A stretch of DNA of 64,000 nt from Enterobacteria phage Aplg8, in sequence record NC_054902.1. One strand, written 5' to 3'. Positions 12,463-14,743 of this stretch are shown one piece after another. Made by a program: the position numbers and the translations under genes. The notes beneath the pieces are model-generated. The model saw only the letters and a program-made list of their open reading frames with translations. It was not told the DNA's origin and made no database searches. Numbering within the stretch: position 1 is the first letter of the stretch; every line of letters starts with the position of its first letter.

Positions 12463-12493
12463 AAAAAGCCCCAACCTTTCGATCGGGGCTAAG
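12463..12493 (-). terminator. rho-independent terminator, direct-repeat copy 1
   Basis: Minus strand AGCCCCGATCGAAAGGTTGGGGCT + T5; 30/31 identical to copy at 13018..13048. Confidence 0.7.
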
Positions 12494-12497
12494 AATG

Positions 12498-12971
12498 TTA
12501 TTTGATTTGTTTAGCAGACCAAATGCGGTCTTTAATAATTTTTTGGATGTCTTCAACATACTCTAGGTCATGAGCATGTGGATTATCTTTGAAACTATGA
12601 GCTCGCGCAAGTTTCTGGCCTTCGGTCTTAATTATCAAAAGTTCTTTAAGAATTGCTTCATACCTAGAGATAATTCCTTTAGCAATATTTTTTTCTTGTG
12701 TTGCTTTAGGGTCAGCCTTAGGAGCAGGTTTACCTGAAGCCTTTGCAAAAGCAGCTCCAGTAGCAACTAAACTTTTCCAAGCCATACTAACTGCATTCCC
12801 TGTAAATCCTTCGGCTTTCATATCACGAGCAAATTGGAATCGTGATTCATCGGAAGCATCTTTATAGGAATATTTACCCGCGGCAATGGCTGCTTTTGCG
12901 ACAGCTTGAATTTCGGTGCTAGATGCTTCATTTAACACCGCTTCATTTAAAAATTGAGCATATGATTTCAT
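12498..12971 (-). CDS. capsid internal protein-like (CTS-bearing) protein, 157 aa
   Basis: N-terminal MKSYAQFLNEAVLNE resembles T4 internal-protein capsid targeting sequence; own late promoter and terminators. Confidence 0.75.
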   Translation of the reverse strand: MKSYAQFLNEAVLNEASSTEIQAVAKAAIAAGKYSYKDASDESRFQFARDMKAEGFTGNAVSMAWKSLVATGAAFAKASGKPAPKADPKATQEKNIAKGIISRYEAILKELLIIKTEGQKLARAHSFKDNPHAHDLEYVEDIQKIIKDRIWSAKQIK

Positions 12972-13017: not shown

Positions 13018-13048
13018 AAAAAGCCCCAACCTTTCGGTCGGGGCTAAG
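13018..13048 (-). terminator. rho-independent terminator, direct-repeat copy 2
   Basis: Minus strand AGCCCCGACC-GAAA-GGTTGGGGCT (10-bp stem, GNRA loop) + T5. Confidence 0.75.
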
Positions 13049-13049
13049 C

Positions 13050-13345
13050 CTTGCGGCAACCTTGTCGGGGTTCCACCTGCTAAGGCAAGTGTTTGTACGA
13101 AACGCCGGGATTCGAACCCGGTTATTAAGCAGTTGACGCTACTCAATATTTTTAAAAGGCCATATCTCGACCATATCCGAACGTTCCGTCAAAAACGCTA
13201 CTCGGCTTACGGCAAAGATATTTCCTCGAATCGATAATTCGGTGCGCCGTTTCTGCTGTGATGTAAGAGGGCATCAATAAACGCAAAGATTATTAACGCA
13301 ATTCCTTACTCAGGGAACATCAGTCCGACGACTTACCGGTAGCGA
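13050..13345 (-). ncRNA. putative small stable RNA(s), tRNA-like T-arm present
   Basis: GC-rich non-coding stretch between a terminator and tRNA-Arg; minus strand CCGGGTTCGAATCCCGG at 13105-13121; no SD-led ORF. Confidence 0.3.
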
Positions 13346-13354
13346 CCCGGTTTC

Positions 13355-13705
13355 TTAATATTCTTTTAAAGCATCAATCTGCTCACGGCGTTTACGCCAT
13401 AAATCAATTGCTTCATACGCGGATTCAACATTTCGAATTGGACGGCATTTATATAAAGATTTGTGATTTTGATATTGCGTAGATAACGGAATTTTATCTA
13501 AAAGGTCTTTACGTTCAAAGTATTCGTAACCATCTAAGCCAAATGAACGATTTTTGAGAAATTGCCAATGACCAAATTCGTTTTGAATATAAATATAATC
13601 CGCGTGTTGATAAAGTAAATTAATTTCACGAAATGAGATATGTTTTTCATATTCATTGAAGTAAAATGTTAAATCATGAACTACTAAATAAACATTACCT
13701 TTCAT
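13355..13705 (-). CDS. hypothetical protein (116 aa) downstream of tRNA-Arg
   Basis: ORF track; GAGGAAAAT SD before ATG at 13705. Confidence 0.55.
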   Translation of the reverse strand: MKGNVYLVVHDLTFYFNEYEKHISFREINLLYQHADYIYIQNEFGHWQFLKNRSFGLDGYEYFERKDLLDKIPLSTQYQNHKSLYKCRPIRNVESAYEAIDLWRKRREQIDALKEY

Positions 13706-13723: not shown

Positions 13724-13799
13724 TGGTCGAGGCAGTAGGGATCGAACCTACGACCTAGGACTTAGAAGGTCCTTGCTCTTCCTTCTGAGCTATGCCCCG
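13724..13799 (-). tRNA. tRNA-Arg (anticodon UCU)
   Basis: Hand-folded cloverleaf: acceptor CGGGGCA/TGCCTCG, anticodon loop CTTCTAA, T-loop TTCGATC, encoded CCA. Confidence 0.85.
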
Positions 13800-13803
13800 T
13801 AAT

Positions 13804-13879
13804 TGGGGTGACCGATGGGAGTCGAACCCATGACTACGAGAATCACAATCTCGAGTTCTACCAACTGAACTACGGCCAC
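13804..13879 (-). tRNA. tRNA-His (anticodon GUG)
   Basis: Cloverleaf: acceptor GTGGCCG/CGGTCAC, anticodon loop TTGTGAT, discriminator C73, CCA; -1 nucleotide is U not G. Confidence 0.8.
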
Positions 13880-13993
13880 ATTAATACCTACTCCAACAAT
13901 CAAGATGTCTTCACACGAAATTAAGAGAAGAGTGATCAGTTCAACCCCTATAATCGCGTCAAGTAGATATTAATGTGACAGTTGTCACAAATT

Positions 13994-14068
13994 TGGCGGA
14001 CGTGATAGGATTTGAACCTATAACCAATCGCTTAACAGGCGATCGCTCTGCCATTGAGCTACACATCC
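13994..14068 (-). tRNA. tRNA-Asn (anticodon GUU)
   Basis: Cloverleaf: acceptor GGATGTG/CACGTCC, anticodon loop CTGTTAA, T-loop TTCAAAT, CCA. Confidence 0.8.
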
Positions 14069-14072
14069 AAAT

Positions 14073-14159
14073 TGGTGGGGAGTGATGGAGTCGAACCACC
14101 CGAGTCGCAATGACAATGGATTTACAGTCCACACCGCTACCTCTACGGGATAACTCCCC
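14073..14159 (-). tRNA. tRNA-Tyr (anticodon GUA), type II
   Basis: 87 nt; acceptor GGGGAGT/ACTCCCC, anticodon loop CTGTAAA, long variable arm, CCA. Confidence 0.8.
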
Positions 14160-14171
14160 TAATTCATAATT

Positions 14172-14246
14172 TGGTGGCCCTGGGTGGAATTGAACCACCA
14201 TCTGGCGATTATGAGTCGCTTGCTTGAACCTTCCAGCTACAGGGCC
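14172..14246 (-). tRNA. tRNA with CAU anticodon (Ile2/Met; Ile in T4)
   Basis: Acceptor GGCCCTG/CAGGGCC, anticodon loop CTCATAA, T-loop TTCAATT, CCA. Confidence 0.8.
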
Positions 14247-14247
14247 T

Positions 14248-14323
14248 TGGTGCTGATTGACGGAATCAAACCGCCGACCTTCTCATTACAAGTGAGTTGC
14301 TCTACCTACTGAGCTAAATCAGC
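14248..14323 (-). tRNA. tRNA-Thr (anticodon UGU)
   Basis: Acceptor GCTGATT/AATCAGC, anticodon loop CTTGTAA, CCA. Confidence 0.85.
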
Positions 14324-14328
14324 AAAAC

Positions 14329-14418
14329 TGGCGGAGGCGATAGGATTTGAACCTATGAGTCGCCGGAGCGACTGCCGGTTTTCAAGACCGGTGCATTAAA
14401 CCACTCTGCCACGCCTCC
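14329..14418 (-). tRNA. tRNA-Ser (anticodon UGA), type II
   Basis: 90 nt; acceptor GGAGGCG/CGCCTCC, anticodon loop CTTGAAA, long variable arm, CCA. Confidence 0.85.
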
Positions 14419-14420
14419 AG

Positions 14421-14494
14421 TCTCCATACAAGGATTTGAACCTTGGACCTCCTGATCCCAAATCAGGCGCTCTACCAAACTGAGCTACACGGAG
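14421..14494 (-). tRNA. tRNA-Pro (anticodon UGG)
   Basis: Acceptor CTCCGTG/TATGGAG, anticodon loop TTTGGGA; no encoded CCA; 2 nt from tRNA-Ser (dimeric precursor as in T4). Confidence 0.85.
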
Positions 14495-14503
14495 TAATTA
14501 AAT

Positions 14504-14577
<74 letters not shown>

Positions 14578-14582
14578 AAATT

Positions 14583-14669
14583 TGGTGCGAGAAGTGGGAC
14601 TCGAACCCACAAGGAAATCATTCCGCAGCATTTTAAGTGCTGTGCCTTTACCAATTTGACCATTCTCGC
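14583..14669 (-). tRNA. tRNA-Leu (anticodon UAA), type II
   Basis: 87 nt; acceptor GCGAGAA/TTCTCGC, anticodon loop CTTAAAA, CCA. Confidence 0.85.
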
Positions 14670-14670
14670 G

Positions 14671-14743
14671 CTGGGAATAAAGGACTCGAACCTTTGCATC
14701 TAGCAGTCAAAGTGCTATGCCTTACCAACTTGGCTAATTCCCA
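14671..14743 (-). tRNA. tRNA-Gln (anticodon UUG)
   Basis: Acceptor TGGGAAT/ATTCCCA, anticodon loop CTTTGAC; no encoded CCA; 1 nt from tRNA-Leu (dimeric precursor as in T4). Confidence 0.85.

Follow-up and report, generated by a model that had tools for sequence, protein, structure and literature searches.

What does the minus strand of phage Aplg8 specify between the terminator of its tRNA gene cluster and the first open reading frame (ORF) upstream of it? The window, that is, the whole 64,000-nt stretch of DNA that was analyzed, comes from a Tequatrovirus: it shares 99.9% identity with Shigella phage Sf22 over the stretch and is matched by 761 phage records. An initial annotation of the interval at 13050-13345 had described GC-rich, non-coding DNA with a perfect T-arm around which no canonical cloverleaf would fold, and it had offered three readings: a homolog of the two small stable RNAs of T4, a degenerate tRNA, or a new structured RNA.

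Identity and extent of the interval

The first reading is the one that stands. The interval aligns at ~98% identity with positions 70908-71171 of T4 (NC_000866), annotated in GenBank as rnaC (species 1 RNA) and rnaD (species 2 RNA), and the near-identity to the T4 segment extends in the alignment from the 5' edge of rnaD as far as the terminator. In T4, rnaD (71053-71171) and rnaC (70908-71046) lie directly after tRNA-Arg; the same genes are annotated in the records of RB6 and RB3. Judged by this alignment, the interval encodes orthologs of both small stable RNAs of T4, in the minus-strand order rnaD, then rnaC (Table 1), and the T-arm is the 3' part of rnaC. Given ~98% identity to T4 rnaC and rnaD, the suggestion of a new structured RNA was wrong. 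That of a degenerate tRNA survives at most as a view of how rnaC originated in evolution; as an identity it gives way to the T4 homolog. Two small stable RNAs have been catalogued in T4 since the 1970s, or for some fifty years. Thus, the rnaC and rnaD genes are already known, their re-identification is ordinary, and there is no surprise here for a T4 specialist.

The non-coding extent, first put at about 300 nt, is ~309 nt, bounded by the terminator stem (13022-13045) and by the stop codon (13355-13357) of a 116-aa ORF. Inside it are only short ORFs of 24-81 aa, including ones of 44, 53 and 81 aa, with TTG or GTG starts. The initial boundaries were slightly off: rnaD reaches ~13358, and 13050-13095 belongs to the 3' trailer rather than to a stable RNA. 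The GC content is locally elevated, as had been noticed, at 0.43-0.45 vs 0.29-0.36 in most flanking segments, and is similar to that of the tRNA cluster (0.45-0.51). It is 0.40 in the segment over the upstream tRNA-Arg and tRNA-His genes, and 0.39-0.41 in the ORF just downstream. The T-arm itself, CCGGGTTCGAATCCCGG at minus-strand positions 13121..13105 followed by CGTTTCG at 13104..13098, is as perfect as first reported; CCGGGTTCGAATCCCGG is its own sole match in the window even when 2 mismatches are allowed, and 0 of 100 shuffles gave a match.

Standard predictors bore out the absence of a canonical cloverleaf. ARAGORN places 11 tRNAs at 13724-14743 and none within the interval, and a scan with Rfam 15, one of the checks proposed at the outset, found no family there at gathering thresholds. 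At E<=10 the sole tRNA-type match in the interval is to tRNA-Sec (16.6 bits; threshold 47), and nothing there matches the Rfam tRNA model. An ARAGORN search for tmRNA was likewise negative in the interval, with no Rfam tmRNA match. With both ARAGORN and Rfam negative, neither a conventional tRNA nor an intron had been overlooked in the first folding, and reading the interval as a tRNA, tmRNA or intron was rejected. Neither rnaC nor rnaD has an Rfam family. Within the cluster itself, tRNA-Tyr (14078-14157, minus strand) scores 30.2 bits on the Rfam tRNA model, for which the threshold is 29; the range for the other ten is 59-74 bits. The 114-nt non-coding spacer between tRNA-His and tRNA-Asn (13880-13993) is far longer than the cluster's other tRNA-tRNA spacers and has no Rfam or ARAGORN call.

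The resemblance to T4 is close in both RNAs. The rnaC gene is near-identical to its T4 counterpart over the full 139 nt (~98-99% identity), with three substitutions only in the rnaC body; like that of T4, it follows rnaD and precedes the operon terminator, on the strand of the tRNA genes. The rnaD gene (~98% identity; nhmmer E-value 1.7e-33, at a syntenic position) has the T4-type variable apical hairpin and is one base shorter than the 119-nt T4 RNA. Its ...CACC is followed by G here and by A in T4, and no CCA-like end is encoded. A CCA-like 3' end for rnaD was considered and rejected because this end is not conserved among phages: T4 has ...CACCA, this phage ...CACCG, and several others ...CACAG. 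The arrangement of the locus also differs. In T4, rnaD starts 1 nt after tRNA-Arg, whereas here, as in the T2-type genomes (T2, DalCa and others), a 116-aa ORF parts rnaD-rnaC from tRNA-Arg. This ORF (13355-13705, minus strand; phrog_3355, no Pfam match) is inserted between tRNA-Arg and rnaD, and its stop codon overlaps the annotated 5' edge of rnaD.

Table 1. Features of the rnaD/rnaC locus (window coordinates).
Feature	Position	Strand	Description and basis
rnaD	13241-13358	minus	118 nt; T4 alignment
rnaD 5' hairpin	13335..13351	minus	ACCGG, 7-nt loop GUCGCUA, CCGGU; alignment
rnaD apical hairpin	13261..13311	minus	hypervariable module; fold of each version
rnaD-rnaC spacer	13235-13240	minus	coordinates transferred from T4
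rnaC	13096-13234	minus	139 nt by T4 annotation transfer
rnaC P1, 5' strand	13227..13233	minus	CGAUUCG; pairs with 13098-13104; covariation
rnaC P2	13156..13226	minus	irregular arm of ~22 bp, 71 nt, four segments
P2 apical hexaloop	13187-13192	minus	UUGACG; alignment of 28 sequences
rnaC P3	13123..13148	minus	hairpin of 9-10 bp; double changes in 8 of 9 stem pairs
P3 hexaloop	13133-13138	minus	CGUCAA; exact complement of P2 loop
rnaC P4 (T-arm)	13105..13121	minus	CCGGG-UUCGAAU-CCCGG; third pair varies
rnaC P1, 3' strand	13098-13104	minus	CGUUUCG; then discriminator-like U (13097) and ACA (13094-13096)
3' trailer	13046-13095	minus	between rnaC and terminator
3' trailer hairpin	13074-13091	minus	7 bp; trailer MFE z-score -4.12
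Intrinsic terminator of tRNA/rnaD/rnaC unit	13022-13045	minus	10-bp stem, GAAA loop, U-run

Predicted structures of rnaC and rnaD

Homologs of rnaC were collected by blastn walks and pattern scans from Tequatrovirus, Mosigvirus, Dhakavirus, Gaprivervirus, Karamvirus, Kanagawavirus and Gelderlandvirus, and further ones from Winklervirus, Mosugukvirus, Marfavirus and the unclassified Straboviridae member Citrobacter phage Ursula. RNAalifold on 21 of these sequences gave 42 pairs, with compensatory changes in 26. A covariance model (R1) built from the 21-sequence alignment yielded 28 distinct rnaC copies, at 78-164 bits, in about ten Tevenvirinae genera; it matches this phage at 13093-13234 with 163 bits and T4 itself with 163.9. 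Over the 28 sequences, 96.2% of cells hold standard pairs, vs 37-48% when the partners are slid by 1-3 columns. Double changes are present in 31 of the 47 pairs, none of 500 shuffles matched the observed values, and the fold has a z-score of -4.55. Covariation, which had been named at the outset as a check, thus supports for rnaC a tRNA-like four-way junction consisting of an acceptor-like stem (P1), two arms (P2 and P3), and the T-arm (P4).

The terminal stem P1 (CGAUUCG/CGUUUCG) spans 7 bp, counting two U.U mismatches. At its third pair, 17 of the 28 sequences have G-C in place of A-U, and in Pectobacterium phage PM2 the first pair changes from C-G to A-U and both U.U mismatches become U-A. 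P4 directly abuts P1 with no spacer, as in tRNA; its third stem pair is G-C, U-A or A-U depending on the lineage, so that the acceptor-like stem and the T-stem of rnaC both co-vary. In P2 (helices 2-5) double changes affect 18 of 22 nested pairs. The loops behave differently: across about ten genera they are invariant while the stems are rewritten, and indels of 1-2 nt occur in the rnaC linker. The Rfam tRNA-Sec-like alignment would instead pair an internal ACGGAACG with the 3' CGUUUCGU. This pairing is contradicted by the covariation and was rejected because other genera show ACGAAACG, ACGCUGCU or ACGAUGCU without compensation, and because the true 5' end of rnaC co-varies with the 3' strand.

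In 22 of the 28 sequences the hexaloops of P2 (UUGACG) and P3 (CGUCAA) are unchanged over stems that have been extensively rewritten. The P2 loop departs from this sequence only as UUGGCG in the Marfavirus group and as GAGACG in PM2. All five Marfavirus-group sequences combine UUGGCG with CGCCAA, a compensatory change from A-U to G-C, and PM2 retains 4 of the 6 loop-loop pairs. Overall, pairing in the loop-loop helix, formed by columns 44-49 and 102-107, reaches 99.4%. The calculated energy of the loop duplex is -5.5 or -7.6 kcal/mol for the matched combinations, vs -0.4 for a mixed one. Because the hexaloops are exact complements and have co-varied once (UUGGCG/CGCCAA), the alignment suggests that P2 and P3 kiss, either within one molecule or between two; this covariation amounts to one evolutionary event, which took place in the Marfavirus lineage. 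For an intramolecular kiss the ~22-bp P2 arm would have to be bent back, and dimerization between molecules through the same loops is therefore equally possible. In the literature searched, which lacked the primary reports of the 1970s-80s, no description was found of the loop complementarity or of the lineage-specific U-CCA end described below.

A 9-nt repeat within rnaC, GAGUAGCGU, occurs once in P2 (~13195-13203) and once in P3 (~13135-13143), and its GUAGCG is a perfect complement of CGCUAC in the invariant loop of the rnaD 5' hairpin (13340-13346). This complementarity may be a contact or a chance match. Pairing between the two RNAs, in which the rnaD loop CGCUAC would bind the GUAGCG found twice in rnaC, is not favored because in several genomes the RNAs occur independently of each other and because the rnaC sites are unconserved or lie inside a stem. 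A different contact may be hinted at by the rnaC copy of Kosakonia phage Kc304 (L051:304-446), in which the T-loop reads UGCAUUC instead of UUCGAAU and the conserved unpaired GG beside the base of P2 is changed (GGCC to CGCC). This double change would fit a GG/T-loop contact like that between the D-loop and T-loop of tRNA, or decay of this copy.

How closely, then, does rnaC resemble a tRNA? As in a canonical tRNA, a 7-bp terminal stem is stacked on a 5-bp T-stem with the loop UUCGAAU, which matches UUCRANY; there is a single discriminator-like base, the gene lies among tRNA genes, and some lineages encode CCA. P1 is invariably followed by U. After this U most lineages, this phage and T4 among them, have ACA, and the Marfavirus group and PM2 have CCA; such an encoded U-CCA would be a genuine tRNA-like 3' end. 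The T4 annotation closes rnaC at ...CGUA, not CCA. Unlike a tRNA, rnaC lacks both a D-arm and an anticodon arm with its 7-nt loop. Their places are taken by the irregular arm of 71 nt and by a 9-bp hairpin that ends in a 6-nt loop; rnaC is ~139 nt long with two U.U mismatches in its terminal stem, and neither ARAGORN nor the Rfam tRNA model calls it. Acceptor/T-arm mimics on non-tRNA bodies, such as the tRNA-like domain of tmRNA, YrlA, viral tRNA-like structures and mascRNA, are recognized by tRNA enzymes. With these tRNA-like modules of non-decoding RNAs rnaC shares the concept but no similarity in sequence or model, Rfam giving no match to them even at E<=10. It differs from tmRNA in having no tag-peptide ORF and no tmRNA pseudoknots, and from YrlA in that its termini lie inside the acceptor stem.

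For rnaD, RNAalifold on 17 sequences gave a structure with 95.5% of cells paired (32-48% after sliding of the partners) and double changes in 6 pairs. By this measure the support for the predicted rnaD structure is real, yet much weaker than that for rnaC. The closing stem of 5-7 bp (GUCGUCG/CGGCG.AC) is invariant, as are, among the 17 sequences, the internal-loop strands GUUCCCUG and AUCACAGC. The closing pair of the 5' hairpin is A-U in 11 sequences and G-C in 6; a terminator scan of the plus strand also caught this hairpin as a stem-loop. The apical hairpin has unrelated sequences in the T2/DalCa and AnYang types, and every version still folds as a hairpin.

Genomic context and transcription

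The rnaC gene is flanked by tRNA genes in several genera, with a gap of 5-11 nt to at least one of these neighbors. In Karamvirus (fGh-Ecl01, Entb_43) and in Gelderlandvirus (Melville) it is flanked by tRNA-Trp upstream and tRNA-Gly downstream. In Winklervirus (Kc304) the upstream neighbor is tRNA-Ile, across a 169-nt gap, and in Mosugukvirus (PM2) it is tRNA-Ser, across a 171-nt gap; in both, tRNA-Trp lies downstream. The presence of one RNA does not imply that of the other. Only rnaD occurs in Providencia phage PSTCR6 and in the Dhakaviruses VR5 and AnYang, blastn detects rnaC alone in Karamvirus genomes, and the Marfavirus group has both, ~350 nt apart. Thus, rnaD is a separate, independently distributed structured RNA. 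In VR5 (L002:700-830) and AnYang (L027:600-730), rnaD and the 3' trailer are kept and rnaC is exactly missing, with rnaD ...ACCGAA running straight into the trailer CACUUGCC; in VR5 this looks like a clean deletion of rnaC. Another Dhakavirus, LHE83, retains both RNAs. Deletions of the T4 tRNA region are viable. Since it is lost in VR5 and AnYang, rnaC is dispensable under some conditions.

Searches farther afield did not extend this distribution. Pattern scans of IMG/VR and one metagenome scan gave no lineages beyond those already seen, nor did a blastn walk from PM2, the most divergent member. An over-loosened pattern gave >120 chance matches in genome contigs, mostly from GC-rich bacteria, and the covariance model matched 0 of 80 of those loci; this pattern is too loose to bear on bacterial homologs. 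Among sequence records, the RNAs are annotated in few only (T4, RB3, RB6, GiZh), and many automated annotations place "hypothetical protein" coding sequences (CDSs) over rnaC/rnaD, for example, in T2 (PV958097), Clarke_MM3 and ADUt.

The T4 precursor is cleaved by RNase III, and the p2Sp1 precursor self-cleaves at 139/140. The tRNA cluster of T4 is transcribed as one precursor of ~1.75 kb that also yields the species I and II RNAs and ends after species I (PMC2330249), and the terminator at 13022-13045 here matches this end; extra ORFs in the tRNA region of T2L are mentioned in the same work (PMC2330249). RNAC and RNAD of T4 were classed as late RNAs and validated by northern blot, a discrete stable RNA of ~140 nt being reported for rnaC, and they have been termed small regulatory RNAs (PMC9697503). 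Their function is still listed as unknown in a review (PMC3014915). In a 2025 evolution experiment, the rnaD gene of a T4-like phage evolving on the host ECOR34 acquired one convergent SNP (PMC12685909).

Downstream of rnaC, the trailer hairpin shows one compensatory change, from G-C to A-U, in Mosigvirus LF82-41. The terminator that follows has a near-identical copy nearby: the hairpins at 12465-12496 and 13019-13050 (AAAAAGCCCCAACCTTTCG[A/G]TCGGGGCTAAG) are identical at ~30 of 32 bases and flank a 157-aa ORF (12498-12971; phrog_2280). This ORF looks like a gene cassette inserted along with a terminator copy.

Proposed maturation and role

The acceptor/T-arm minihelix is the element recognized by RNase P and by tRNA 3'-end enzymes. 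Because rnaC has such a minihelix, and tRNA-gene neighbors at tRNA-like spacings, it is most likely cut out of its precursor like a tRNA, by tRNA-processing enzymes. The analysis shows which genes these are, how rnaC folds, and that its terminal module and its surroundings are tRNA-like; this route is what we infer from architecture and context. In the proposed pathway, the host tRNA-maturation machinery would release rnaC from the polycistronic precursor. RNase P would cut at the 5' end, and the 3' end would be made by endo- and exonucleolytic trimming, possibly with addition of CCA. Once released, rnaC would build up as a stable tRNA mimic that does not decode. We give a probability of about 0.85 to this explanation as a whole: that the interval holds orthologs of rnaD and rnaC, and that rnaC is a tRNA-like RNA released by the tRNA machinery as a stable mimic.

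What the mimic would do is a more tentative matter. The preferred idea, put forward at low confidence, is that rnaC occupies a tRNA-binding protein of the host or phage as a decoy or sponge. A bolder idea, which must be considered doubtful, is that rnaC, made by the host tRNA-processing machinery as a compact tRNA mimic that is locked by a kiss of six base pairs or dimerizes through the two loops, titrates a tRNA-recognizing factor and so acts as a counter-defense or host-takeover RNA. The factor might be, for example, a host tRNA-directed defense nuclease or an enzyme of tRNA maturation or charging. In this scheme rnaD, as a second and independently mobile module, would influence how the phage performs on certain hosts, and the convergent rnaD SNP would be a hint of this (PMC12685909).

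Other explanations do without a tRNA mimic acting in trans. The RNAs could be cis-acting modules for processing or stability, protecting the 3' end of the operon transcript or guiding its maturation. This would suit their location at the operon 3' end in T4-type genomes, beside a structured trailer and a terminator, and their common precursor with the tRNAs (PMC2330249). However, rnaC lies mid-cluster in at least four other genera, which argues against a purely 3'-end cis role; furthermore, in T4 it accumulates as a separate stable RNA (PMC9697503), and its conserved loops and possible kiss exceed what a 3' protective hairpin needs. A cis role is improbable on this evidence.

It is likewise quite improbable that rnaC and/or rnaD are regulatory sRNAs that base-pair with host or phage mRNAs. 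The designation of both as small regulatory RNAs (PMC9697503), the conserved single-stranded A/U-rich linker of rnaC, and the convergent rnaD SNP on ECOR34 (PMC12685909) would all be in keeping with such a role. However, no target is known, an acceptor/T-arm architecture is foreign to base-pairing sRNAs, and the loop-loop pairing and the T-loop account for most of the conserved single-stranded nucleotides of rnaC.

The locus could also be evolutionary debris, with rnaC a decayed tRNA gene and rnaD a spacer, both transcribed with the cluster and functionless. Several observations would be expected of debris: tRNA models do not call rnaC, rnaC is missing from VR5 and AnYang and rnaD is undetected in Karamvirus genomes, the T-loop is degraded in the Kc304 copy, and 50 years have passed without a function being found (PMC3014915). 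However, debris would not keep 96% pairing through 31 double-substituted pairs across about ten genera, or leave two hexaloops and several junction motifs unchanged between rewritten stems, and discrete stable RNAs do accumulate in T4 (PMC9697503). The strong purifying selection on structure and loops therefore argues against debris, which we consider very improbable, and also against coding. That the interval codes for small proteins, as the hypothetical CDSs in the GenBank records of T2, Clarke_MM3, ADUt and others and the window ORFs of 44, 53 and 81 aa would have it, has a negligible chance of being correct, given the TTG or GTG starts, the compensatory substitutions at the RNA level, the 1-2-nt linker indels, the annotation of RNAs by the T4 and RB6 curators, and the detection of RNA by northern blot (PMC9697503).

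Returning to rnaC as a tRNA mimic, the analysis leaves several useful by-products: a structural model, a candidate loop-loop contact, and a gap in the Rfam families. Because there is no Rfam family for these RNAs, most of the ~800 related phage genomes carry them without annotation or under spurious ORFs. The model of rnaC is backed by covariation, and the candidate contact and the lineage-specific CCA that it includes can be tested directly by mutation. The role of these RNAs is a long-standing, if small, question in the best-studied of phages, and the present interest in anti-phage defenses that target tRNA provides a concrete reason to revisit a tRNA-shaped RNA that has no anticodon.
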